The notes beneath the pieces are model-generated. The model was not told where the DNA came from. It saw nothing but the letters and a program-made list of their open reading frames with translations, and did no database searches. The translations under genes were made by a program, and so were the position numbers. From Elusimicrobiota bacterium (GTDB lineage: Bacteria; Elusimicrobiota; Elusimicrobia; 2-01-FULL-59-12), in contig JBBQYF010000003.1 of assembly GCA_038208955.1 (NCBI GenBank), positions 1-36,726 of the forward strand: 36,726 bases of DNA. The letters run 5' to 3'. Below are positions 521 through 36,726 of the stretch, piece by piece (the first letter of the stretch is position 1; each line of letters opens with the position of its first letter).

Positions 521-612
521 TGCCCTTGATGTCAACCATTGTTAATCGGCCGTCGCCCCTCTCATCCGTTCGGCAATCACCCGCTCTTCTCATTCGCTCC
601 TGGAGGCATGAC

Positions 613-3600
613 ATGAAATCTTCATCACAACAATCCGCCCGCCAACTCGAAAAGATTTTCCGGCTTTCGCTGCTGGCCAGTTTTGCGCTCGTTACAAGCG
701 CGCATGCGGCTTCCTTTACGGTGACCGTCAACGGGGCGGGTTGCGCGGCGAACGCTCAAGTGGTGGCGGTGGTGCAAGGGTCACAAGGACCGGATTCAAC
801 GAAGAGCGTCGTTACGACAGCCGACGGTAGTGGGATAGCGACTTTTTCGGGATTGACGACCAGCGATGCTTATCAGTTCATGGCTGCCAATGCCGGCTGT
901 ACGCCTTCGATGCGGGACCAGTCGATGTCTCCAAGCAATGGACCTCAGTCGATTACGGACGGCGGAACCAAAGCGATTTCATTAACGAGCGGAAATTCCG
1001 ATGCGACCGTGAATATGACGGTCAAGTTGCCGGCCGGCGGAAGTTTTCCAAAACTCGTGACCGGAAGTTGTAATGTGGCGTCCAACAATGTGCAAGCAAG
1101 CTTCGGCATTAGCTCTTTTGCCGGCCAAACCGGAACCTTAACTTTTTACAACCTGCGTCCCGGACCCGCCAATACCTATAACTGCAACGTTTTTTCAGCG
1201 GAGGATAACCGCGGCAGCGGAGCACCTGTGAACACCACGCTCACGCCGACCCAAAATTTTACGATTCCCGGCACCATCGATTTAACGCAAAGCTTCGCGC
1301 CTCCGCCGTCGACCGAAAACCAAGGATCTCGCGACGGCAGCAATATTGGATTCCCAAACCTCTCGGTCTTCCTTAAGAATGGCGTCAACGCCGCCGTTCC
1401 GATGGCGCAACTTCGTCTGAAAACGTCCCCCACTGGCAATCCCGTTCAATATACGCAATCCGACATGAATGGCGTGGCCAACTTTTACGGTTTGGACCAG
1501 AACACCACCACTTTCTTCTTAGACGTCACGGCCCCGGCCCTCCAGGGATTCGTGAATCTCGAATTTTCGACCCCGAGTTGGACCACGACATACAGCACCG
1601 CCATCACGCTCGGCGCTCTGACGCATCCCGGAACCATTTCGGGTTCTGTGCGGATGAACGGAGCGGCGCTGCCCGGCGTTTGGATGAACTGCAATCCCGA
1701 TTTTAGCCCCTACCCCGGCTCCGACACCTTCGGGGGCGATATCCCGAACCCTGGCGCTGGAAATGTCGGAGGACAACTCTCTACAGGAACTTTCAACTTC
1801 CATGATCTTACACCTGGGAATTACAATTGCTCGGTCAACTCTCCCTTTTCGCAATCCGGGACTGTCGTGACTGATGGTGCGGACGGTACCCACAGCACCA
1901 CCGATGATATTCGCTTAACGATCGATAACCTCGGAATTTTCAAGGTTTACAACGCAGTGTCGGGCGTCCTCATTAGCTCCAACACGCCGATTGTTGTTTC
2001 GATTCCCGTGAACGCCGGTGCCGATGGAACCATTTCCGGAACTTTAACCTTCCCCGACGAGGCCGATCTCAGCCTCAATCCGGTGACGATCCTAGCCTAT
2101 GGGCAATCGACTCCGGGCGATAATACGCCACCCAACGGCGGCGTTACGGTCTCGACCGGCATAGGCCAAACGCAGCTGTACACATTGAAAGTTCCGTCGG
2201 GCCACACCTACTTCATTCAAGCGCAAGGTATTACGTATGGGCCGGTTAATTTAAATGATTCTCCGACCGCCGATTTAACGTTAAAAACGTCGGCATCAAA
2301 CTTGAATTTCACCATGGCGAAAGCAGGTTCGATCGAAGTTACGCTCGCGACGTCGAACGGCTCGCGCTGGCTCCCGGTGACGCAGCCGCCACTGGGCGCC
2401 GGATCTGACTGGTTTCAAACGGGTTACTGCGGCGCCAGTGTGAATGCGAACGGACAAAGTGTCCGGTCGTGGAATCAGGGATCGCCCGATCAAAGCGGCG
2501 TCGTCAACATTCCGGGTTTACCGGCGGGCAGTTACAACCTGCAATTTCAAGCCAACGGCGGCGGATGCACGGTAACGAACACCGTCCTTAATAACGTCGT
2601 TGTCGGGATTGGGCAAACCACCAAAGTAACCTTGACCGTCCAGAACGGAGTCGGCGTGGACGTCCACACGGGCGCATTGCCGGCAGGCACCGTCGTTGTC
2701 GATACAAGCCATGGCAGCGGGCACACCGACGGGCTCTTGCTCGCCACCGTTGTGGCCTATCCCCGCGGTACGTCGTTGACGCTCGACACCCTGCAGTCAC
2801 TGGGCAATCCCGAGAACAATCAAGATCCCAATCTGCAACTTTCCCTTGATAAAAGTTCTTTCAATAATGTCCTGAACGTTGCGTCCGTCGGGTTTATTCC
2901 GGGCAACGTGGGTGGCGGCCAATTTTCCGCTCCCAAAGTAACGCCCGGAGAATTGACCTTTTACCTCTTCGCTTCACAAAAAGGCGGGCCGGAGTTTCAT
3001 ACGTTGCTCGGCAAGGCCAATGCCGTCGTCGACGCGGCGCATGCCGATGTCTTCAGTACGGTGTTCGGCAGCAGCGCCGTGCCGGTTAATATCGCCAGTA
3101 GTTTTGGTAGCGCGACGATCACTGGAAAAGTGAACGGCAGCCACATCATGACCAAAGATGACTTTGTGGCGGCGGGCGGCGATGAAAATAAAGTGTTTAG
3201 CCATATTCCGATATGCGCGATCTACGACCAGAATGCCAGCCTGCTGGGCTTTGGCACGGCGATACCGCCGAACTTGACGCAAGCGCAGAAGGACGCGGTA
3301 GATTCGTCCTTTGCCGCCAACGATGCCGACGGATTCCTGGCCGCGTTAAACAACATTCAGTTCAGCTACACCGTCGCGTTTCTCCCGTCGGGCAACTACA
3401 ACCTGGCTTGCACGACTCCCAATTACCCGCCCGTGTTGTCCAATGTCACCTTGACCGACAACCAAACCATCACGCTTGATGTCGACTTCGATAAAAGCGC
3501 CGGTGCAGGCGGAACAATCTCGGGTACGGTCGCGGACTCGGGCGGGGTTAAACTCGCTGGAGCCACGGTTACAATTCGGACCAAAACGCTGACGAAAACC

Positions 3601-5265
3601 CAAACGACCGATTCGACGGGCGCCTACGCCTTTCCGAATTTGGCCGACGGCATCTATCGCATGGAAGCCGCCGTTCCCGGATTTGCCAGCGCGACCGACA
3701 AGTCGATTATTGAAAATGGCACGCCCGCGACGGTGAACTTCGCCCTCGTCAGCGCGCCGGGCTCAATTACCGGAACGGTTTACGCCTCGGTCTTCCCCAG
3801 CAAAGTAGCCGCCGGTGGGGCCGATGTGTACGCTTACGACGACACAGTCAATGCCGCGCGGCTCGGGCCCGATGCTCCGCACTGGACAACCCAAACGGAT
3901 GCCAACGGGGTTTATACGTTGCCCAACCCCGCACCGGGGGATGTGATTAAGATCTTTGCAACAACCGATGGGAAATATCCTGCCGGCACACAAGTCACCG
4001 CCACGGCCTCAGTCGTGACGGCGCCGGATCTCAGCTTAAGCGCCATTCCGCCGACGCCGACGGTTCTTTATAAGCCGCTTGGGGGCGCGACGATCGACCT
4101 GACCGTCCGCGTGCCGAAGGTTCTGGCATTTGCTCCGACGCTCGCCTGCAGCGCGGGGGCGACTTACACGGATACCGGTGCCACTCCTTACACGCTAGTC
4201 TCAGCCCCAAATAATGTTTACGAAGCCTCAGTCATCACCATGCCGGCCACGGTCAGCACCTGCCGGTTAATTACCGACGACGGCGACAAGGCCCAAACGA
4301 TCGACACCTTGGTGAACTTGACGACAGTTAAAGAACAGTCGAATAGCACGATTCGTAATGAAGCCTTCGGCGGTAGCGTCGAAAGTGATACCGATAATCA
4401 AGGCGCATCGATTGACTTCCCTATGGGATCGATCGTTACGGCCTCAGGAACATTGCCCACGGTGCAAATCGTGCGGGATGCGTCCTTATCGGTCTCCGCC
4501 GCCGTAACTCAAACGACGATCATGAGCGACTCCTTCGAACTCGCGAGCGATGCCAATCTACAGCTCGGAAATGGAAAGTCTTTAGATATTACTCTGCCCG
4601 TTAGCCGGACGACGTTGCCCGATCCGAAATCATTGCGCCTGGCACAAATCATCAACGGACAAATTGTTCCCGTGCCCGGCGAAGGTTTCTATGACGCTCT
4701 TACCGGCCGCTTCACAGTCTCGGTCAACAGTCTCGGGAATGCTCCGGCCGCAAGTTCCATTCGAATGGCCAGCGCGAGCCCGTCTCTCAAAGGCTTGGCT
4801 CCTTACAAGAGTCACAGCTACGGCTTCGATGTTGCCCGCGCGGCTTCGCAAAGTGGAAGCTTTGTCCTGGTCGGCGTCAGGACAGCGACGCCGCCGGGTC
4901 CGACGAATGCCGCCTATGGGGGGGCCACGCTCGGAGCGTTCAACTTCCCAAATCCGTTTAACTTGAAATCGAAGACCATTGGTCTGCTCGATGGATCATC
5001 GATGACGACCGACGGAACGATCCTGCACTATGACTTGCCGGCCGCGAATGCCGGACACGTGATTATCCGAGTCTTTTCAGTGTCGGGTGAGCTCGTACGA
5101 GTCATTGACGAAGGAGTCAAAGCCGGCGGTATCACTTACTACACGGCATGGGATGGCAAGAACATGAACGGTGCCGACGTGGCGACTGGCGTGTACTTTG
5201 CCGTGTTCGACGTGCCCGGTCTAAAGCCTAAACAGCATGTCGTCAAAATGGCGGTGCTGAAATGA
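613..5265 (+). CDS. Large secreted surface protein (1550 aa) with carboxypeptidase-regulatory-like/Ig beta repeats and a C-terminal FlgD-Ig/T9SS type-A sorting-like domain
   Basis: GGAGG at 602-606 precedes ATG 613. Sec signal ends ...LVTSAHA. Repeated GTISG(S/T)V/GSITGTV strands. C-terminus reads FNFPNPFN...IRVFSVSGELVRVI...WDGKNMNGADVATGVYF...KMAVLK. Confidence 0.8.
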   Translation: MKSSSQQSARQLEKIFRLSLLASFALVTSAHAASFTVTVNGAGCAANAQVVAVVQGSQGPDSTKSVVTTADGSGIATFSGLTTSDAYQFMAANAGCTPSMRDQSMSPSNGPQSITDGGTKAISLTSGNSDATVNMTVKLPAGGSFPKLVTGSCNVASNNVQASFGISSFAGQTGTLTFYNLRPGPANTYNCNVFSAEDNRGSGAPVNTTLTPTQNFTIPGTIDLTQSFAPPPSTENQGSRDGSNIGFPNLSVFLKNGVNAAVPMAQLRLKTSPTGNPVQYTQSDMNGVANFYGLDQNTTTFFLDVTAPALQGFVNLEFSTPSWTTTYSTAITLGALTHPGTISGSVRMNGAALPGVWMNCNPDFSPYPGSDTFGGDIPNPGAGNVGGQLSTGTFNFHDLTPGNYNCSVNSPFSQSGTVVTDGADGTHSTTDDIRLTIDNLGIFKVYNAVSGVLISSNTPIVVSIPVNAGADGTISGTLTFPDEADLSLNPVTILAYGQSTPGDNTPPNGGVTVSTGIGQTQLYTLKVPSGHTYFIQAQGITYGPVNLNDSPTADLTLKTSASNLNFTMAKAGSIEVTLATSNGSRWLPVTQPPLGAGSDWFQTGYCGASVNANGQSVRSWNQGSPDQSGVVNIPGLPAGSYNLQFQANGGGCTVTNTVLNNVVVGIGQTTKVTLTVQNGVGVDVHTGALPAGTVVVDTSHGSGHTDGLLLATVVAYPRGTSLTLDTLQSLGNPENNQDPNLQLSLDKSSFNNVLNVASVGFIPGNVGGGQFSAPKVTPGELTFYLFASQKGGPEFHTLLGKANAVVDAAHADVFSTVFGSSAVPVNIASSFGSATITGKVNGSHIMTKDDFVAAGGDENKVFSHIPICAIYDQNASLLGFGTAIPPNLTQAQKDAVDSSFAANDADGFLAALNNIQFSYTVAFLPSGNYNLACTTPNYPPVLSNVTLTDNQTITLDVDFDKSAGAGGTISGTVADSGGVKLAGATVTIRTKTLTKTQTTDSTGAYAFPNLADGIYRMEAAVPGFASATDKSIIENGTPATVNFALVSAPGSITGTVYASVFPSKVAAGGADVYAYDDTVNAARLGPDAPHWTTQTDANGVYTLPNPAPGDVIKIFATTDGKYPAGTQVTATASVVTAPDLSLSAIPPTPTVLYKPLGGATIDLTVRVPKVLAFAPTLACSAGATYTDTGATPYTLVSAPNNVYEASVITMPATVSTCRLITDDGDKAQTIDTLVNLTTVKEQSNSTIRNEAFGGSVESDTDNQGASIDFPMGSIVTASGTLPTVQIVRDASLSVSAAVTQTTIMSDSFELASDANLQLGNGKSLDITLPVSRTTLPDPKSLRLAQIINGQIVPVPGEGFYDALTGRFTVSVNSLGNAPAASSIRMASASPSLKGLAPYKSHSYGFDVARAASQSGSFVLVGVRTATPPGPTNAAYGGATLGAFNFPNPFNLKSKTIGLLDGSSMTTDGTILHYDLPAANAGHVIIRVFSVSGELVRVIDEGVKAGGITYYTAWDGKNMNGADVATGVYFAVFDVPGLKPKQHVVKMAVLK

Positions 5266-6296
5266 GCGCCATCATGAGGATCCAGGAAAAGACCATGAGA
5301 ATATTTAATCGGCAATCCAATCGGATCGAAAGTCTCTTGAAGAGTGCCTGCCCGGTCGTCTTGGCCATGAGCTTACCGCTCACGGCTTGGGCGGGGAACG
5401 GTTCCGGAACGACTGGGGCTCAGTTCCTCGAAATCGGCGTCGGCGCGCGCGAGCTCGCCATGGGCAGCGCCGGTGTGGCGCTTGTCGACGATGCACATGC
5501 GATGTACTGGAATCCGGCGGGCGCCGCGACGATTGCGACTCCGCGTTTGGACGCTTCCTATAACAATCTTTACCAGGATACGAACCAGGGGTTTGTCGGG
5601 TTTGCATTGCCGGCGAGGGGGGGCGTGTGGAGTGCGGGGGCGGATTACTTGCAAGTGCCCAGCATTGAGCGGCGGCTCGGCGATTATTACACGCCGGACT
5701 ACACCTTTACGTCCAAGGATTCCGCGCTCATGCTCTCGTACGCCCGTCCAAATACGTTTCTTCCTGGACTGGCGCTCGGTGCCAACGTGAAATTGGTCCA
5801 GAGTTATTTGGATAGCGCGAGCGCTCATGCCTTCGCTGTAGACTTCGGAGCGCTCTACCGCGCCGTGGAAAAACCCTGGTCGCTCGGCTTCTCGCTCGCC
5901 AACCTGGGAACAGGCCTAAAATACGTGGATGCCACCGAACCACTTCCCTTGGGAGTCAGGTTTGGGGGAAGCTACGGGCTCTTTGAGCACCGCCTGGTCC
6001 TCGCGGCAAGCGTCGATTCCTGGTTGCGCGATGCGCGGACGTATGAAGACGTGGGTGTCGAGTACAAACCCGTCTCATGGACGGCCCTGCGCGTCGGTTA
6101 CCAAGCGGGACATGCCCAGGATCAATTGGGCAGCAGCCTCGTCGGGTTCAGCACTGGGGTCGGTTTCCAATTCTGGGGATTGAATGTCGATTACGTATTT
6201 ATCCCATACGGAGATCTCGGCACTACGCAGCGATTCACGGTAGGCTACCGTTTCGGCGACGCCGCCGCGCCGGACCTGCAAATGAAAAGCCACTAA
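5262..6296 (+). CDS. PorV/PorQ-like (UPF0164/FadL-superfamily) outer-membrane beta-barrel
   Basis: ATGA overlap with the upstream gene. Signal peptide ends LPLTAWA. Motif FLEIGVGARELAMG...AMYWNPAG, alternating beta strands, last strand GYRF. Alternative start at 5295. Confidence 0.82.
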   Translation: MSAIMRIQEKTMRIFNRQSNRIESLLKSACPVVLAMSLPLTAWAGNGSGTTGAQFLEIGVGARELAMGSAGVALVDDAHAMYWNPAGAATIATPRLDASYNNLYQDTNQGFVGFALPARGGVWSAGADYLQVPSIERRLGDYYTPDYTFTSKDSALMLSYARPNTFLPGLALGANVKLVQSYLDSASAHAFAVDFGALYRAVEKPWSLGFSLANLGTGLKYVDATEPLPLGVRFGGSYGLFEHRLVLAASVDSWLRDARTYEDVGVEYKPVSWTALRVGYQAGHAQDQLGSSLVGFSTGVGFQFWGLNVDYVFIPYGDLGTTQRFTVGYRFGDAAAPDLQMKSH

Positions 6297-6477: not shown

Positions 6478-8514
6478 ATGCGAGGCCTCCCGCTTTTATT
6501 ACAGAAATCTGTGACGCTGGCCCTCGTCCTTTGCTTGCCCTCCAATTTGATCGCGGCAGGATCCCGCGTCGCTTTCAATCCCGTTCCCATCGCGACCGCA
6601 AACATGAGCCTGTTTACTCCGCAAGCGCTGATGCTTGCCCCGGTATCATCGCTTGTTCCCTCGCTCGAAGGTCAGAGGCAGGCCGAGTGGGTACGCCGTC
6701 CCGCTACGACGGCAGCTTTACGCATGAACCTCCCGGAGGAACGATCTACCGGGCGGCACCGGTGGGTAAAACCGACTGTTTTAATGCTTCTCAGTGCAGC
6801 GGCGCTGGTTGGCCCCGCGGCCTTTATTCTTCATCAAACCTTACGCAAATCGTCGGACGATGTGCGCGCCCGCGCTTGGCCGATCAAAGCGCTTTTTGCT
6901 TTTTATGTTCGCTATATCGACCGCTACGTGCAGGTCGAAGGCCTGGATAATCTGCCCGTGAACGGTCCCTTTTACGTCGTCGTCAATCATGGGTATAAGT
7001 CGGGAGTTGATGTGTTCCTGCTGGCCCTGATGATTGCCGCGCGCGCGGGACGGGTACCTCGGATCCTAGTGACCGGTGATAAACGCCCGAGGACGGAAGA
7101 CTTTGAACGCCGTGGGCTCGAATACTTCGGAATCGCGGAACGCGTCGTATCGGCGAATCCCGCTTCCCTAACGCCGGCGCCGCAGAGCCAACGATTAACC
7201 GATCGAATGGTCTCCTACTTGCAAGAAAATCCCCGACATGTCTGGATCGTTTGTCCGAAGGGAAGCGCCACGGCCGATCCGGCGGAACAACTCAAGGACT
7301 GGCGCAAGGGAGTGGGCCATAGCGCCTTAAAAAGTGGATTTCCGATCATTCCTGTCGCGTTTGCCGGATTGTCGCTAGACTGGACACCGCACGACGTTCT
7401 TTCCTCGGGCTGGCATGCCGGAACGAAGCTAAAAACCCCTGCGCCATTTTCCGTGCGCATTAGAATTGGCACATCTGTAACTCCGAAAGGAACGGCGGAG
7501 GAGATCATGGCGGTGTTGAACTCCAATGTTAAAACGTTGATGCGCGGTATGCCCGGTCTTTTGCCTGAGAACGGCGAAGACACGCGGCTCAATCCTCCCG
7601 ACCATCAGCTGGTTCTACGAGACGGGCGAGTGCTCCGTTACCGCGATTACGGCTCAGGAACCCCAGTTTTTCATACCCACGCATTTCAGGGCTCTGCTCT
7701 CGAACGCTTTCCAGGACTTAATGAAATTTTACGGCGATTGCGTGTTCGGTTAATCGTTCCCGAGCGTCCTGGCATCGGCCAATCCACTCCGCAACGTGAC
7801 CGCACACTTGCTGACTGGCGTCTGGACTTCAAAGAACTTAAAACTGCGCTGCTCGGCCCCAGCGAGCGGTTTAGAATGGTTGGGTTTTCGGCCGGTGCTA
7901 CGTACGCCCTGGCCTGCGCCGATACGGAGGGCTTAGCGGCGCTGGCCTTAGTCAGCCCGATGGGTCTGCCGCGATCATGGAGCCATTGGCGGCACTATTC
8001 GAGAAGCACCCGGCTGCGGCTCGGCACGGCGCGTCTCAATTTGAAAAACACTCGAGATGCATTTGATCGCGAAGGCCGGAAAATCTTGTCCGACAGCGAT
8101 GCTTATTTCTCGGCCTACCTTCTTCATAGGCCGGACGACGATCGTAACACGCTGTCGGAGCTCGAAGCCGCGAGACTTTTTAGGGAAAATCGCCTGGAAG
8201 GATATGAGAAGGGCGGGGGCGCCGTATTCGCGGATCTGAAAGCTGTCCAAACGCCAATGCCTGTCTCACAGGAATCCATAAGGGCCTTGCATCCGCTGGT
8301 CTTTCACGGTTCAACGGATAGTGATGTTCCCATCCAAGTTGGAAAACTCCTCGCCGAATGGTCCGAAGGAATTTTTTTCCCCTATCCGAACCGCGCGCAC
8401 TATTTGATATTCACCGAGTTCGAGACGATCTTAAGGAAATTATTAATGGTGGATCATTCGGCAATGGCTCAAGGTTCCAAACACGGGCTCGTTTTACCAT
8501 TAATGGGAGCGTAA
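6478..8514 (+). CDS. Fusion of a PlsC/MGAT-like acyltransferase domain and an alpha/beta hydrolase, with a signal-like leader
   Basis: Acyltransferase blocks VEGLDNLP..GP..VVVNH..D, CPKG, ALKSGFPIIPVA. Hydrolase: DGRVLRY, PERPGIGQS, GFSAG nucleophile elbow, HGSTD, RAH. ATG 6478 is preferred because the GTG 6370 start lies just after the terminator. Confidence 0.75.
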   Translation: MRGLPLLLQKSVTLALVLCLPSNLIAAGSRVAFNPVPIATANMSLFTPQALMLAPVSSLVPSLEGQRQAEWVRRPATTAALRMNLPEERSTGRHRWVKPTVLMLLSAAALVGPAAFILHQTLRKSSDDVRARAWPIKALFAFYVRYIDRYVQVEGLDNLPVNGPFYVVVNHGYKSGVDVFLLALMIAARAGRVPRILVTGDKRPRTEDFERRGLEYFGIAERVVSANPASLTPAPQSQRLTDRMVSYLQENPRHVWIVCPKGSATADPAEQLKDWRKGVGHSALKSGFPIIPVAFAGLSLDWTPHDVLSSGWHAGTKLKTPAPFSVRIRIGTSVTPKGTAEEIMAVLNSNVKTLMRGMPGLLPENGEDTRLNPPDHQLVLRDGRVLRYRDYGSGTPVFHTHAFQGSALERFPGLNEILRRLRVRLIVPERPGIGQSTPQRDRTLADWRLDFKELKTALLGPSERFRMVGFSAGATYALACADTEGLAALALVSPMGLPRSWSHWRHYSRSTRLRLGTARLNLKNTRDAFDREGRKILSDSDAYFSAYLLHRPDDDRNTLSELEAARLFRENRLEGYEKGGGAVFADLKAVQTPMPVSQESIRALHPLVFHGSTDSDVPIQVGKLLAEWSEGIFFPYPNRAHYLIFTEFETILRKLLMVDHSAMAQGSKHGLVLPLMGA

Positions 8515-8598: not shown

Positions 8599-9231
8599 AT
8601 GTATGCTCAAGCCATGTCGGCGCAAACTCCAACAGTGCATCTGACGGCCTGTCACAGTTGCGATGCCTTGCTGCGGCTGCCGGCCGTTCAACACAGCACT
8701 TTCCACTGTCCTCGCTGTGATGCGGTCGTTTACCGCGCGGGTTTGGCCAAACGGGTAGACGACGCGCTGGCCTTAGGCCTGGCGGCGGCGGTTTTTTTTC
8801 TGTTGGCGAACAGCTTTCCAATTGTCGCGATTGAGTCGGGCGGGGATCGGTCGTTCGCGACATTGCCTGGCGCGTCGCTCGCGCTTTATAAGCAGGGGAT
8901 GAGCTTCGTGGCGTTCGTCGTGGCGATAACAACCTTGTTTATTCCGGCGATCGAACTAAGCTGCACGTTGGGAATGCTGTGGTTTGCCAAGTTTAAACGA
9001 AGCTTCTCGCTGACATTTTTATTCCGGTTGCGGAAGCGCTTGCGTCCGTGGAGCATGATTGAGATTTTCATGTTGGGCACCCTGGTTGCCATTGTAAAAT
9101 TGGGAAGTTGGGCGCACGTGTTGCTCGGTGTCGGCCTCTGGTCACTGGGTATTTTTATGGTCCTGCATGCCGCCACCTCGCACGCTTTTGAGGCGATTGA
9201 ATTTTGGAGCAAGGTTCAAACCGAGTCATGA
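8599..9231 (+). CDS. pqiA: Paraquat-inducible protein A family (first half-size copy)
   Basis: CHSC...CPRC zinc motif, TM helices, WSMIEIF..G.LVAIVKL signature. Confidence 0.88.
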   Translation: MYAQAMSAQTPTVHLTACHSCDALLRLPAVQHSTFHCPRCDAVVYRAGLAKRVDDALALGLAAAVFFLLANSFPIVAIESGGDRSFATLPGASLALYKQGMSFVAFVVAITTLFIPAIELSCTLGMLWFAKFKRSFSLTFLFRLRKRLRPWSMIEIFMLGTLVAIVKLGSWAHVLLGVGLWSLGIFMVLHAATSHAFEAIEFWSKVQTES

Positions 9232-9881
9232 ACGAAAATTTTGTAACGGCCCGGGCGCGCGGACTTATGCTTTGCGATGTCTGCGGGTTTCTGATGCAAT
9301 TCAAATCCAAGCGACCTGAAAATATTCATTGCCCACGTTGTGGCCAAGCGGTTTATCCGCGAAAGCCGGCGAGCCTGCAGCGGACGGCGGCCCTCGTGCT
9401 CGCGGCGGCGATTCTGTATTTTCCCGCCAATATGTTACCGATTATGCGGACGTCCACACTCACCTATGTTGACAACAACACCATTTTGAGTGGGATTATA
9501 GAACTGTGGTCGGGGAACTCTTGGCCCCTTGCGATCTTCGTTTTCTTTGTCAGCATTCTCGTGCCGCTTCTTAAATTAGCGGCGCTCAGCCTGTTGATTA
9601 TCAGCACGCATTATCAATGGCGATGGCGGCTTCAAGAACGCACGAGACTCTATCGCTTTCTCGAGTTCATCGGGCGTTGGTCGATGCTCGATGTCTTTGT
9701 GGTTGGCTTGCTCGTTGCCCTGGTGAAACTGCGAGGTCTTGCCACTGTTACGGCCGGTCCCGGGGTCCCACTCTTTGCATCGGTTGTCATTTTAACGATG
9801 TATGCCTCGCAAGCATTTGATCCGCGTCTCATGTGGGATCATCAAGCCTCATCAACTCCCGACCCTATCCGTGGATCCTGA
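9228..9881 (+). CDS. pqiA: Paraquat-inducible protein A family (second half-size copy)
   Basis: ATGA overlap at 9228. CDVC...CPRC, YFPANMLPIM, TILSGIIELW, IGRWSMLDVFVV, FDPRLMWD. Confidence 0.92.
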   Translation: MNENFVTARARGLMLCDVCGFLMQFKSKRPENIHCPRCGQAVYPRKPASLQRTAALVLAAAILYFPANMLPIMRTSTLTYVDNNTILSGIIELWSGNSWPLAIFVFFVSILVPLLKLAALSLLIISTHYQWRWRLQERTRLYRFLEFIGRWSMLDVFVVGLLVALVKLRGLATVTAGPGVPLFASVVILTMYASQAFDPRLMWDHQASSTPDPIRGS

Positions 9882-11388
9882 ACAAGATCATCGGGATGTC
9901 CCCGCCGCTGTCGGCCAGCGCACACGCTTGCCGCTCGTCTGGTTCGTCCCGATCATTGCCGCCCTGCTGGCCGGTTGGATCGCCCTTCGCGCGCTGATTA
10001 CTCACGGTCCGACGATCACCATCGCTTTTAAAGATGCCGCAGGCATCACCGCCGAAAAAACCAAAGTGCGTTACAAGAGCGTTGATGTGGGTGACGTGAA
10101 ATCGGTGACGATCGATCCGGATCATCGGAACATTCAAGTGTCGGTCGAGATCGCTGGCTTTGCCCGACCCTTCCTTGTTTCTGATACGCGGTTTTGGATT
10201 GTTCGTCCCCGTTTAGGCGGTAACGGCGTTTCCGGGCTAGAAACATTGGTGTCGGGCGCTTACATTGATATGGATGTAGGGCGATCGAAAACGACCAAAC
10301 GCGAGTTCGTCGGTCTCGAAAATCCGCCGGGAATTACGGGTGACGTGCCGGGCAAAGAATTTGTCTTAAGCACTCCGGATCTGGGTTCCCTCAGCACCGG
10401 TGCGCCGGTTTATTTTCATCATATTCAAGTCGGCCAAATTAGCGCGCTGGCCCTGGACGACGACGGCCGCGGCATTACCCTGAAAGTTTTTATTTATACG
10501 CCGTACGACCGCTTTGTCACCCAAGACAGCCGCTTCTGGCACGCCAGCGGCGTCGACATGTCCGTCGATTCCTCGGGCATCCGTCTTCTGACAGAATCGA
10601 TCACAACGATCCTTCTGGGTGGTGTCGCCTTTGAAGCGCCGACGACTTCCAACTTGAGCGCTCCGGCAGCGCCCGAAACTCGGTTTGAATTGGCGGCCAA
10701 TCGCGATCTGGCTATGAAACCGCCCGATCGCGTTATTGAACCCTACGTGCTTTATTTTGACGAGTCCCTGCGTGGTTTGACCGTCGGTTCTCAGGTCGAT
10801 TTCCTGGGAATTACTGTCGGCGACGTCACGGCTTTGCACGCCGAATATGATCACGTGAAAGACCGATTTATTTTTCCAGTGTTTATTAACATTTATCCGG
10901 AACGCATCCGCTCCCGCGATCCGAAGGCGGGTGCTTACCCCGGGCATTCCTCGCATCCGCTTGTGGCGCATATGATCGATCGGGGCTACCGGGCGCAGCT
11001 TCGCTCTGCCAATTTGCTCACCGGACAACTTTATATTGCGGTCGACAATTTCCCGCGTGCGGCGAAAGTGAAGCCGCATCCCGAGCTCGAGCCTATGCCG
11101 CTCCCAACGGTTCGCGGCAATCTTGATGAACTGCAGAAGACCATCGCCAGCGTGGCCAACAAAATTGACCACTTGCCGCTCGAAAAAATTGGCCGGGACG
11201 TGGACAATGTTCTTTTGTCATTCAATAACACGCTCAGCAGTACGACGACCGACGCACCGTTGACGAACGATGTCCATGCGACGTTGACCAGCGTCGGCCG
11301 CGCCGCCGATTCACTTCGTGTATTTACCGATTATTTGGATCAGCATCCGGAAGCGTTGCTCCGCGGTAAAGCCAAGGAGGATAAATGA
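9871..11388 (+). CDS. pqiB: PqiB, MCE-domain intermembrane transport protein (3 MCE domains)
   Basis: N-terminal TM (WFVPIIAALLAGW), three MCE repeats (KTKVRYKSVDVG; GAPVYFHHIQVG; GSQVDFLGITVG), SGLETLVSGAYI, helical tail ending HPEALLRGK. GTG 9871 is the likely start. Confidence 0.92.
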   Translation: MDPEQDHRDVPAAVGQRTRLPLVWFVPIIAALLAGWIALRALITHGPTITIAFKDAAGITAEKTKVRYKSVDVGDVKSVTIDPDHRNIQVSVEIAGFARPFLVSDTRFWIVRPRLGGNGVSGLETLVSGAYIDMDVGRSKTTKREFVGLENPPGITGDVPGKEFVLSTPDLGSLSTGAPVYFHHIQVGQISALALDDDGRGITLKVFIYTPYDRFVTQDSRFWHASGVDMSVDSSGIRLLTESITTILLGGVAFEAPTTSNLSAPAAPETRFELAANRDLAMKPPDRVIEPYVLYFDESLRGLTVGSQVDFLGITVGDVTALHAEYDHVKDRFIFPVFINIYPERIRSRDPKAGAYPGHSSHPLVAHMIDRGYRAQLRSANLLTGQLYIAVDNFPRAAKVKPHPELEPMPLPTVRGNLDELQKTIASVANKIDHLPLEKIGRDVDNVLLSFNNTLSSTTTDAPLTNDVHATLTSVGRAADSLRVFTDYLDQHPEALLRGKAKEDK

Positions 11389-11972
11389 GTCGTCATTTTA
11401 GTCGTCTAGGGATAGGGTTGGCCGCACTGGCCTCGCTGGGTGGGTGTTTGTCGCCGCATGAAAATTTTTATACGCTGGATGCCGTCCGACCCACGCCACC
11501 GCAGACCGGTCCTCTCGTAACGATTGTCGTTGGACCGGTCGCTTTACCGCCACTGGTCGACCGTCCGCAATTGGTGGTCCGAGAGGGCGATAACAAAGTC
11601 AAAGTGCTAGAGCAAGAACGCTGGGCCACGCCTCTTAAGGAGTCCTTGCCGAGGCTTCTCGCCGACGAGCTCAGTCAGCGCCTCCCAGACCGCCGCTTCG
11701 TTGCGGCGGGGAGTCGTGCCATCGCCGCAACCGGCGGACGGCTCGTCGTCGATTTCACCCGCTTTGATGTCACGGAGGTTTCTGGCGCCCATGTCCGGGC
11801 CCATTGGATCTATCGTCCAGTCGAATCCGAAACCGATCCTGTCGAAGGGGACTCGGACGTGCAGATCAAACCCACGCTGGCCGGATACGAAAGTCTCGTG
11901 GACGCCTTGCAGCGTGCGAGCCTGGCTCTCGGCGACGATATCGCGGGTCATTTAAAACCTTCGGGGAAATAG
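11385..11972 (+). CDS. pqiC: PqiC-like ABC auxiliary outer-membrane lipoprotein
   Basis: Lipobox LGGC, FYTL, GPVALP..VDRPQLV, RWATPL; ATGA overlap with pqiB. Confidence 0.9.
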   Translation: MSRHFSRLGIGLAALASLGGCLSPHENFYTLDAVRPTPPQTGPLVTIVVGPVALPPLVDRPQLVVREGDNKVKVLEQERWATPLKESLPRLLADELSQRLPDRRFVAAGSRAIAATGGRLVVDFTRFDVTEVSGAHVRAHWIYRPVESETDPVEGDSDVQIKPTLAGYESLVDALQRASLALGDDIAGHLKPSGK

Positions 11973-35088: not shown

Positions 35089-36726
35089 GTGCATTTTCGA
35101 CTTTCTTCAATCATCGCTGTTTTTCTCATTTCTTGCCTCGCCTCTGATCCGTCCATAGCGACAGGATACGAGGCCGCGCGGTTTCACGTCCATCACAACT
35201 CGATTTCTATAGAAGGTCTGTGGTACCGACAAGCGTTAGCGGCTCCGATCCAAGCGGGCACTCCCTTAGAACTCAATCATTGGTTGCGACACTGCGAGAG
35301 TATGACGGCTAGAGACTATGAGGCGCATTTGAAAGAAATGGATTCTTTTATCCGCGAGAAAGCTGCGGTCTATTGGCAATCAATTCAGGCAACGGCGAGC
35401 GAGCCCGAAGGCGAGGTGGTGAGGCGATGGCTATCGGAGCTATCCAAAACACTTTCCGAATTTCCTCTGTCCTCGGAACTGATGAACGCGACGTACGATT
35501 TTTTAGATACAAAGTCGTTAGAGGAATCCCTTCGGCAGTGCGGCCATGCCGTCGTTGCGCTGCTGCTTTGCCTCATTCAGAGGGATATTCTTGCTCAAAA
35601 TTTGAAAGAGGCGGTTCAGCAACTTTACGTTTTGACCGACTATATGCACACTCTTTCCGATTTGCATGAGAGTACAGAAAGCGGGTTTCTGATCGGAAGC
35701 CATCCTGATTTTCTGGCGGCGCGCGCCATCCTCTCAACGGCGATCCCCGGCATTCTTCAGCGAATCGAAAAATCGATGAGCCTCATCTCGCCCGTATTGG
35801 AACCGCATTTACGTCTTATGAAGTCAGCCGTCGATTATGTGTGTTATCAAGCGTTAGGGATTATGGTTCCGGATTTTGTCTGGGTTCACAACACTCAAAA
35901 TCTTATTCGGGCAGGATTGACGCGCGTGGCGGCGACGTTGGCCGAGCATATAGGACCTCATTCGCGCGCCAACATTGACGAATCTGACATTCGATTCGTA
36001 CCGGAAATCCTAGCCACTCTACTGCCTAAGCTTTCTCCCGCAAAGCCCAACGCCGCCAAAGAGCCCGTACGAGAATGGGCTTTTCGAGTTTTTTCCTTGC
36101 TATTCATTCAGATGCCGGACTATGAGCTGGATTATGTTCCGTCTTTTGACCTTTGGATGGCCGAGATCGCCATTCGATTTGGCGTTAAGAATCCCGGGGG
36201 AATCAATCGCAAGGCCACACGCCTCTTCCGCTCGCTGTTGGTCCATAAAGACGGCGCAATTCCGCGAGGTCTCGTGCTGACGTTTCGAAACGATCCCGAG
36301 CATGCAGAGCAATACCAAACCGGTCAACATGTTGTTATCGACCTGGGGCAGTTTGCCGCTCACCGAAAGGCCCGCCGATCTTTGGATATGCATTCTTTTG
36401 CGTCACCTCCGCCACGACCAGCGCTTGTCGAACGGTTTTTCGATTCATTTCACACACCGTTGGATCCGGTCGAACTGGATTACTACGAGCGCGTACGTGG
36501 CTTTCTGACGAAACGTCTCGATGAACCGCGGCCACCTATAGTATTGAGCGTCTACCCTCGTCCCTCGCTACAAAATGATGAAGCGGATCCCATGGTGCTC
36601 CCGGGCCACTTTATCGTCATCGGAGCGGAGGGGCCGCGACGCGCTCGCATCGTAATGGAGGATCCTAATTCAATTTTTATGGTCAACGATCCCGTGACGC
36701 GCGTCGGGCTAGTCGCCAATATCACG
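35089..36726 (+). CDS. Large hypothetical protein with a signal-like leader, partial (runs off the window edge)
   Basis: Not in the ORF track. The frame is open from 34921 to the end (translated by hand). GGGAGG at 35071-35076 lies 12 nt before GTG 35089: MHFRLSSIIAVFLISCLASDPSIATG...LWYRQALAAP. No family recognised; in-frame ATGs at 34939 and 34996 are alternative starts. Confidence 0.75.
   Translation, partial: MHFRLSSIIAVFLISCLASDPSIATGYEAARFHVHHNSISIEGLWYRQALAAPIQAGTPLELNHWLRHCESMTARDYEAHLKEMDSFIREKAAVYWQSIQATASEPEGEVVRRWLSELSKTLSEFPLSSELMNATYDFLDTKSLEESLRQCGHAVVALLLCLIQRDILAQNLKEAVQQLYVLTDYMHTLSDLHESTESGFLIGSHPDFLAARAILSTAIPGILQRIEKSMSLISPVLEPHLRLMKSAVDYVCYQALGIMVPDFVWVHNTQNLIRAGLTRVAATLAEHIGPHSRANIDESDIRFVPEILATLLPKLSPAKPNAAKEPVREWAFRVFSLLFIQMPDYELDYVPSFDLWMAEIAIRFGVKNPGGINRKATRLFRSLLVHKDGAIPRGLVLTFRNDPEHAEQYQTGQHVVIDLGQFAAHRKARRSLDMHSFASPPPRPALVERFFDSFHTPLDPVELDYYERVRGFLTKRLDEPRPPIVLSVYPRPSLQNDEADPMVLPGHFIVIGAEGPRRARIVMEDPNSIFMVNDPVTRVGLVANIT

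Follow-up and report, generated by a model that had tools for sequence, protein, structure and literature searches.

A bipartite N-terminal leader with export-signal features on unrelated proteins of one Elusimicrobiota family

The stretch of DNA analysed here (the window, 36,726 nucleotides) is contig C3 of G000, a metagenome-assembled genome of an Elusimicrobiota bacterium (2.9 Mb in 316 contigs, 90% complete, 54% G+C). Two genes of the window, referred to as those of proteins 1 and 2, encode different bodies behind a similar N-terminus, and this shared N-terminal leader is the subject of the present study. Protein 1, read from the ATG at 6478, begins MRGLPLLLQKSVTLALVLCLPSNLIAAG...SLFTPQALMLAP, with C19 and Q49. 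Protein 2, read from the GTG at 35089, begins (V/M)HFRLSSIIAVFLISCLASDPSIATG...GLWYRQALAAP, with C16 and Q48. Re-reading of both N-termini confirmed the two leaders as they had been set out in a preliminary description of the window, including the Cys-to-Gln distances of 30 and 32 residues. The downstream bodies had been held to be unrelated, and this was found to be correct: protein 1 carries the Pfam domains Acyltransferase (residues 151-295) and Abhydrolase_6/_1 (residues 401-643), whereas protein 2 matched no Pfam family above threshold (StiP only, with 20.4 bits against a cut-off of 28.7 bits). The sequence GGGAGG lies 12 nucleotides (nt) upstream of the GTG at 35089, and this start holds because it gives exactly the spacing of the leader consensus described below (C16, D20 and P21; A24 is also on its consensus position). 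A Shine-Dalgarno-like run was seen about 22 nt upstream of the ATG at 6478. The features are collected in Table 1.

Table 1. Genes and leader features of proteins 1 and 2 in the window
Feature	Position	Strand	Content or basis
Protein 1 gene	6478..8514	+	Open reading frame (ORF) from ATG; 678 amino acids (aa); leader, one transmembrane (TM) helix, PlsC-type acyltransferase, alpha/beta hydrolase
Leader 1, signal-peptide part, residues 1-28	6478..6561	+	R2, K10, core VTLALVLCL, S-N replacing the consensus D-P, then I-A-A-G
Leader 1, second motif L-F-T-P-Q-A-L-M-L-A-P, residues 45-55, Q49	6610..6642	+	Sequence
Protein 1, predicted TM helix, residues 99-120	6772..6837	+	Kyte-Doolittle scan, mean 2.22 over 19 residues
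Protein 1, C-terminal tail P-L-M-G-A	8497..8511	+	Two small last residues
Protein 2 gene	35089..36726	+	ORF from GTG; 546 aa read, runs off the window end; leader, then body
Leader 2, signal-peptide part, residues 1-26	35089..35166	+	R4, core IIAVFLISCL, then A-S-D-P-S-I-A-T-G
Leader 2, second motif L-W-Y-R-Q-A-L-A-A-P, residues 44-53, Q48	35218..35247	+	Sequence, family alignment A4

The second motif was found to be positional in G000 and not randomly placed. Of the 21 occurrences of [FW]..QAL in the 1,182 ORFs that open with a signal-like sequence, 12 fell at residues 35-65; this segment holds 8% of the positions, and the expected number was 1.7 (p=1e-8). When the pattern was relaxed, the count was 34 of 199, compared with an expected 18 (p=2.4e-4). 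The strict regular expressions of the preliminary description matched just the two source proteins among 12,619 ORFs and were uninformative. The looser [FWY]..QAL gave 60 matches, 14 of which were judged by reading to lie 20-35 residues behind the signal-peptide-like start of a long ORF, and four further members lacked the aromatic residue. Gln was located at residues 42-64 in the first 18 members found, and no pair of these 18 was detected at an expectation value (E) of E<=1e-3 in an all-against-all BLASTP comparison. The bare tripeptide QAL is common, with 819 occurrences in all ORFs and a 1.3-1.8 fold enrichment after N-terminal hydrophobic stretches. A scan for tripeptides following such stretches was dominated by WNP/NPA, because of the PorV-like proteins, and with QAL ranked 25th to 203rd it was too blunt a test. 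PorV-like matches numbered 22 in G000, 6-13 in sister genomes and 7 in the leader-free genome G004.

A profile made of the 18 leaders initially picked by hand recovered no G000 proteins beyond these. Profiles A2 and A3, made from the copies in G000, undercounted the relatives; the G000 copies are degenerate versions of the family consensus. Profile A6, which consisted of 50 metagenome N-terminal fragments only, recovered the leaders of G001, G002, G007 and G009. When the profile and motif routes were joined, G000 had at least 32 members, including some with E-A-L, Q-T-L, Q-A-I or S-A-L in place of the Q-A-L core.

A profile of 39 leaders (alignment A4) was run on a library of 1.84 billion representative proteins, and 592 protein clusters were matched at E<=1e-3. 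Nearly all of the best 150 of the 592 were aligned from residue 1 to about residue 70 of independently called proteins, and the leader starts therefore hold. These proteins were 57-3,814 aa long, the short ones being contig-end fragments. The consensus of the alignment was MxKxLxRIVALLLVPCLxADPxxAxA ... FxxQAL, with a start that is commonly M-P-K. The logo of the first part, M1 to A24, was drawn from the 118 of the best 150 matches that carry D-P, and the most conserved positions were M1 (90%), K3 (72%), R7 (91%), L13 (95%), C16 (83%), L17 (93%) and A24 (81%), followed by A26 (54%). The logo of F-x-x-Q-A-L, drawn from 148 of the 150, gave F 92%, Q 78%, A 97% and L 82%. The median position of the Gln was residue 49 and the median distance from D to Q was 28 residues. 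Alignments A1 and A2, of the 19 leaders found first, showed no variation in Q-A-L, and the A and L were present in at least 90% of the rows of A4. Judged against this consensus, the pattern CLxS[ND]..IAxG noticed in the window reads as a degenerate local form of V-P-C-L-I-A-D-P-x-x-A-x-A, which has the appearance of the end of a hydrophobic core followed by a signal-peptidase-type A-x-A site. Most leader proteins are large, up to 3,924 aa.

The range of the leader was determined in 11 genomes of the taxonomic family of the window (G000-G010), of which G007 is a complete genome and G004 served as leader-free control. With profile A6 at E<=1e-3, the leader was found in 10 of the 11 genomes at 6-44 copies each: 44 in G005, 37 in G003, 32 in G010, 23 in G006, 22 in G008, 17 in G002, 15 in G007, 13 in each of G009 and G000, 6 in G001 and 0 in G004, which is 95% complete. 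When 301 genomes were sampled evenly from the phylum, A6 at E<=1e-4 matched G000, G001 and G007 and none of the 297 genomes outside the family. The proposal of a lineage-specific bipartite leader on dispersed, unrelated proteins was thereby borne out.

No model in Pfam or NCBIfam recognises the leader, and no Pfam family was assigned to the N-terminal region of any of the proteins scanned, which comprised 27 members from G000, 51 from the library and 50 leader fragments. A search of the literature gave no description of it. The source names of ten library members ("hypothetical protein", "predicted ATPase" and "phosphoribosylpyrophosphate synthetase") never mention a leader. A search of the ESM Atlas with residues 1-90 of a consensus-like member gave a best score of 0.81 against hypothetical proteins mostly of Elusimicrobiota, which is a lead only. 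The tag is thus new in the sense that it is undescribed in the curated libraries and the literature searched. In kind it is a protein-sorting signal, and the C-terminal, degron-like end that is coupled to it is unusual.

Protein 2 is a clear member of the leader family. It was matched by A6 with E=3.4e-6 among the 12,619 ORFs and with 5.8e-7 in the genome search. Protein 1 was matched with E=0.029 and ranked 17th of the 12,619 ORFs, with the alignment located at the N-terminus, and is accordingly regarded as a divergent member. A canonical leader protein of G010 matched residues 40-123 of protein 1 with E=5.3e-5.

The bodies that follow the leader are diverse. Eighteen of the 27 G000 members scanned had no Pfam match. 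The others carried acyltransferase and hydrolase, AAA_12, PALP and DDAH, alginate lyase, a methyltransferase of the SAM (S-adenosylmethionine) type, His_Phos_1 and Epimerase, PGM_PMM, or a Response_reg receiver. Among 51 library members, 29 different Pfam families were found, each in one member, and these included GGDEF, GntR, HTH_17, Sigma70_r4, RNA_pol_A_CTD, Acyl-CoA dehydrogenase, HAD, ATP-grasp and HATPase_c. The body of protein 1 has 17 homologues in other lineages (one of them in Bryobacteraceae), which share the acyltransferase-hydrolase fusion at 36-41% identity and are 522-595 aa long. In the seven that were aligned (A7) the leader is absent. They start at positions corresponding to residues of about 82-139 of protein 1, that is, at or up to about 20 residues before helix 99-120 and in one case after it, and this helix is the counterpart of the N-terminal hydrophobic helix of the leaderless homologues. 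Weak partial matches and no full-length relative of protein 1 were obtained from about 40 related genomes, and a search of genome contigs for related loci gave none. Comparison of the sequences shows the leader to be a module grafted onto unrelated bodies.

The first part of the leader consists of Lys3 and Arg7, a 12-residue core containing Pro, and A-x-A at positions 24-26. The family logo has the positive n-region, the h-region of about 7-15 residues and the small residues at -3 and -1 that are typical of a Sec signal cleaved by signal peptidase I, and genes for signal peptidase I were present in all five genomes tested. The I-A-A-G end of leader 1 is likewise a putative site of the signal peptidase I type. 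All 27 G000 members examined have a linker between the two parts with a net charge from -2 to +2, and the stretch after the motif is often basic. The early mature region is thus low in positive charge, and the bodies have a composition of the exported type. The median Cys content of the bodies was 0.18% in leader proteins and 0.31% in strict signal-peptide proteins of the same genome (n=45, p=0.33), compared to 0.93% in proteins that lack both a signal-like start and a hydrophobic helix (n=346; p=1.6e-9 against the leader bodies). AlphaFold2, given the alignment of 50 leaders, predicted a helix at residues 3-27 (predicted local distance difference test, pLDDT, about 85) and a second one at residues 36-55 over the motif (pLDDT about 65), with no compact fold (predicted template modelling score 0.25). 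The proteins had been proposed to be exported effectors. Export is plausible, on the indirect grounds of the uncharged linker and the exported-like Cys content, and by the -3/-1 rule the leader would be transported by Sec and cleaved after A26; the term effectors is unsupported.

Other known routes were considered and rejected. The family Cys is not the Cys of a lipobox, in agreement with the earlier remark that LVLC is not a canonical one: an invariant Cys preceded by [LVI][ASTVI][GAS] is lacking, position -1 is mostly Pro (72% of the D-P-anchored matches) or Leu, and the Cys itself is present in 99 of the 118 D-P-anchored matches and replaced by S, A, F, L or N in 19. By reading, about half of the first 31 leaders carry it. 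Twin-arginine translocation (Tat) was rejected as a general route, with a single Arg (R7) in the consensus, R-R in few members, and TatC not found in G007 (15 copies of the leader) and G003 (37 copies). TatC was present in G000 and G005 and not found in G003, G004 and the complete genome G007. A prepilin-like reading was rejected for want of a G-F-T-L-I-E-type start, cargo of the type IX secretion system (T9SS) because no leader protein scanned had a C-terminal sorting-domain match in Pfam, and a TPS (two-partner secretion) domain because neither it nor a haemagglutination-activity domain was matched in the N-terminal regions. PEP-CTERM and exosortase were rejected as well: Exosortase_EpsH was found in one of five genomes (G003 only) and was absent from the leader-bearing G000, G007 and G005, and the present tag is N-terminal.

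The LPLMGA end of protein 1 had been noted in the preliminary description, together with a suggestion to compare C-termini. The C-terminus of leader proteins does matter, LPLMGA as such does not, and the signal is a terminal pair of small residues, mostly Ala-Ala. Among 25 complete members in G000, 12 have an AA end, compared with 46 of 1,194 other ORFs of at least 300 aa (p=1.4e-10), and 22 have the end [AGS][AGS], compared with 106 of the 1,194 (p=9e-20). In the 66 library matches of at least 300 aa, an AA end was seen 44 times, SA 7 times and AG 3 times, and some of the rest are probably truncated. All nine leader ORFs of G007 within 200 kb around known matches end in AA (eight) or SA (one). 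The logo of 51 tails showed L, I, F or V at -5 (32/51), R, A or L at -4 (28/51) and R at -3 (20/51), followed by A-A. The Ala residues are encoded by all four possible codons and followed by any of the three stop codons, which places the constraint on the protein. The P-L-M-G-A tail of protein 1 is read as a weak form of the family's hydrophobic-x-R-A-A end; the C-terminus of protein 2 lies off the window.

Ala-Ala is the commonest C-terminal dipeptide in G000, with 88 of 3,333 ORFs of at least 150 aa, 58 of 1,219 of at least 300 aa and 37 of 416 of at least 500 aa, and such ends were seen for example on contigs C12, C18 and C154. In unbiased 400-kb samples, AA ends were counted in 8 of 196 ORFs of at least 300 aa and 6 of 49 of at least 500 aa in the leader-bearing G007, and in 5 of 225 and 2 of 82, respectively, in the leader-free G004. 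If about one gene per kb is assumed, the Ala-Ala tail of leader proteins is estimated to occur in 1-2% of proteins.

The tail of the leader proteins resembles an SsrA-type degron of the ClpXP peptidase. Most family members end in Ala-Ala-COOH, as SsrA-like degrons do. The transfer-messenger RNA (tmRNA) of G000, found with aragorn on the contig listed as C160/C161, encodes a 23-residue Met/Pro-rich tag ending in P-L-A-A, and clpX was present in all five genomes tested. The strongest C-terminal degrons of E. coli are described as ending in Ala-Ala, with the consensus [L/F/Y/W]-[L/A/R]-L-A-A (PMC10862746), and a native sigma factor ending in Ala-Ala, sigma-AntA, is described as a ClpXP substrate (PMC7142297).

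With moderate confidence, the shared N-terminus is interpreted as a Sec-type export leader joined to a periplasmic address motif, with a fail-safe degron at the C-terminus. The N-terminus would be carried across the inner membrane by a cleavable signal peptide of the Sec type, the sequence of which is unusually fixed. After removal of this peptide, the F-x-x-Q-A-L helix would lie in the periplasm, separated from the new N-terminus by a linker of about 20 uncharged residues. There the helix, [L/F]-F-x-x-Q-A-L, could be read by a partner that sends the protein to, or holds it at, a particular place in the envelope or outside the cell. The tail, hydrophobic-x-[R/S/T/Q]-A-A-COOH, could act as an SsrA-like ClpXP degron by which copies left in the cytoplasm are removed. 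In protein 1, helix 99-120 would stop transfer, so that the first 70 or so mature residues with the motif would be outside and the enzyme body at the cytoplasmic face; its catalytic domains probably stay in the cytoplasm behind this helix.

Several observations weigh against this interpretation. The recognisable cargo is mostly of cytoplasmic types that need nucleotides or DNA, and several members, with a receiver domain or a domain like phosphoglucomutase (PGM), have no TM helix between leader and domain, so that a plain reading places these domains in the periplasm. At position -3, where SsrA has Leu, the tail mostly has Arg (also Ser, Thr or Gln). Nor is the tail confined to leader proteins: the 46 AA ends among G000 ORFs without the leader compare with 16 expected, and ordinary enzymes, histidine kinases and an IS256 transposase are among the proteins concerned. 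Protein 1 is only marginal against the outside profile (E=0.029) and ends in G-A. BLASTP of the genes around 18 members revealed no recurrent neighbour, and genes for S41 peptidase, rhomboid, signal peptidase I, Omp85 and PorV-like proteins are also present in G004. The idea that secretion machinery would co-occur with the leader was not upheld: with G004 as control, none of about ten candidate families tested tracks it. Omp85 paralogues, for instance, occur at 2-4 copies per genome, and G004 has 2; C39 peptidase was found in none of the five genomes tested.

A less probable alternative is that the leader is an uncleaved signal-anchor or tether. Its helix would stay in the inner membrane, the motif helix would lie on the membrane or bind a partner, and the family would consist of membrane-tethered enzymes and regulators. 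The cytoplasmic-type domains agree with this, as do the further TM helices of many members, which are often paired (C7 135-183; C27 121-164, 1050-1108 and 1741-1833), the position of the leader of protein 1 in front of the helix that anchors the N-terminus of its leaderless homologues, and the single long helix drawn by AlphaFold2 for residues 3-27. Against it, the core is only about 12 residues long, contains Pro and is followed by the conserved A-x-A, which is typical of cleaved signals, and the depletion of Cys matches exported proteins. A positive N side would moreover still put the body outside, so that the cargo problem stays. A quite unlikely explanation takes both ends as turnover signals alone, on short-lived cytoplasmic or membrane-associated proteins: ClpXP or FtsH would recognise the Ala-Ala, with the hydrophobic N-terminus serving as a second degron or as an element for recruitment to the membrane. 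Some cytoplasmic signalling proteins of these genomes, for example a histidine kinase with GAF and a GAF-HD protein, do have Ala-Ala ends, and the cytoplasmic-type cargo, the likeness of the tail to ClpXP degrons, the L-A-A end of the tmRNA tag and the presence of clpX in all five genomes would all fit. The signal-peptide grammar, the uncharged linker, the A-x-A site and the low Cys content are left unexplained, however, and it would be costly to make proteins of 2,000-4,000 residues in order to degrade them.

The two ends could also have been conserved by common descent or recombination in a fast-evolving multigene family, in the manner of variable surface proteins whose signal peptides are conserved, with a motif that has no sorting role beyond Sec export. 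This is unlikely, despite the large proteins mostly without Pfam match (18 of 27 in G000), the strong differences between sister genomes with 0-44 copies within one taxonomic family, the lack of a full-length relative of protein 1 in about 40 related genomes, and a near-duplicate pair beside IS256-type transposases in G007. The members share no BLASTP similarity, and their bodies include unrelated conserved enzymes (PGM, a pyridoxal phosphate enzyme, acyl-CoA dehydrogenase, GGDEF) whose relatives elsewhere lack the leader. Conservation falls on R7, L13, C16, L17, D20, P21 and the F, A and L of the motif while the linker varies, which is the pattern of a recognised signal. Chance resemblance or wrong start codons are very improbable. 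The frequency of QAL (819 in all ORFs, 1.3-1.8 fold enriched) and, for protein 1, the E of 0.029 and the Shine-Dalgarno-like run as far as about 22 nt from the ATG could be cited in favour of chance. For the family and for protein 2 it is contradicted by the positional p of 1e-8, the 592 library matches from residue 1 and the consensus spacing of protein 2, and the G010 leader protein that matches protein 1 with E=5.3e-5 also speaks against it.

The interpretation as export leader, address motif and degron may be extended to an undescribed secretion route that carries large proteins with cytoplasm-type activities out of the cell and into others, such as prey, host or neighbours. Leader and tail would then mark its substrates, and the SsrA-like tail would be self-protection via ClpXP ("export or die", with no immunity proteins). 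The cargo of such a route would comprise receiver domains, GGDEF, GntR and sigma-region-4 binders, phosphoglucomutase, methyltransferases and lipid acyltransferase/hydrolase. Little weight is given to this extension, which is improbable at present.

If read in the periplasm, the second motif would work like the TPS domain of two-partner secretion (type Vb) or the N22 segment of curli CsgA. The TPS domain of TpsA is a folded beta-helix of about 250 residues that follows a Sec signal and is read in the periplasm by the Omp85 transporter TpsB. As in the leader proteins, a Sec-type signal and a conserved N-proximal element, which would be needed only after Sec transport, are found on very large, diverse proteins; here, however, the counterpart of the domain is a helical motif some 15 residues long, Omp85 numbers do not track the leader, and TpsA has no Ala-Ala tail rule. 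In curli biogenesis (type VIII secretion), the N22 segment, a short segment behind the signal peptide, targets CsgA to CsgG. The short targeting segment directly behind a Sec signal is alike, but N22 serves one substrate family from a dedicated operon, whereas the leader is found on dozens of unrelated dispersed cargos with no linked channel gene. A single one of the 50 fragments of A6 gave a chance-level NCBIfam match to CsgG (E=0.035), which was disregarded. YSIRK/GS, twin-arginine and autotransporter ESPR signal peptides carry conserved residues beyond the n-h-c grammar. The leader shares such extra residues, which imply a special route or timing, but differs in sequence, has no twin arginine in most members and is restricted to one family of Elusimicrobiota.

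PEP-CTERM/exosortase, GlyGly-CTERM/rhombosortase and the T9SS C-terminal domains are dispersed tags with dedicated enzymes. A short conserved tag on many unrelated proteins in a narrow range of organisms is common to these and the leader, and the order K/R, helix, D-P mirrors that of PEP, helix, basic end. The leader differs by its place at the N-terminus and by doubling as signal peptide; exosortase was found in one of five genomes, and rhomboids are also present in G004. Compared with SsrA-like degrons, the tail has the same Ala-Ala-COOH, a hydrophobic residue at -5 and R, A or L at -4, in a host with a P-L-A-A tmRNA tag and clpX. It differs in the Arg, Ser, Thr or Gln that mostly replaces Leu at -3, and the degron-like end is encoded in the genome and coupled to the putative export leader.

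The LPXTG, PEP-CTERM and T9SS C-terminal tags each led to dedicated cell-envelope machinery. For the present uncultured lineage, the leader gives a list of probable envelope or extracellular proteins, and it shows cytoplasm-type enzymes and regulators bearing a putative export signal. If the tail works as a fail-safe degron, it would represent a new principle of quality control in secretion. In annotation, the two ends make it possible to assess the start codon, the membership and the completeness of these giant genes.

Giant proteins of a second class also have this type of signal peptide and end in Ala-Ala, but their N-proximal element differs and reads [V/I]-L-I-Q-D-L-H-x-N-x-x-V-Q-x-x-I-A. 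Members of this class were found on G000 contigs C32 (3,175 aa) and C42 (1,647 aa) and in the segment 500001-900000 of G007 contig C1 (12,935, 1,730 and 1,536 aa). The near-duplicate leader proteins of G007 are 2,345 and 2,343 aa long, and each adjoins a transposase of the IS256/Mutator family. These transposases, at 91743-92993 and 1400608-1401855 of contig C1, are 415-416 aa long and themselves end in ...VAA. Two more IS256-type copies, open frames of 422 aa with the same end, were found in the 500-900 kb sample of G007.

A prediction of protein 1 by AlphaFold2, run without an alignment, gave a mean pLDDT of 33.7 and no usable structure. Upstream of the protein 1 gene, positions 526-5265 of the window encode a 1,579-aa protein with CarboxypepD_reg repeats and a FlgD_ig-like C-terminal end and without the leader, directly followed at 5262-6296 by a PorV-like outer-membrane protein (Pfam PorV, 35.7 bits). 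Directly downstream, at 8599-11972, lie genes for PqiA, PqiA, PqiB (with three MlaD domains) and a PqiC-like lipoprotein. Together with these Pqi genes, the acyltransferase-hydrolase of protein 1 may form a neighbourhood of lipid remodelling and lipid transport.

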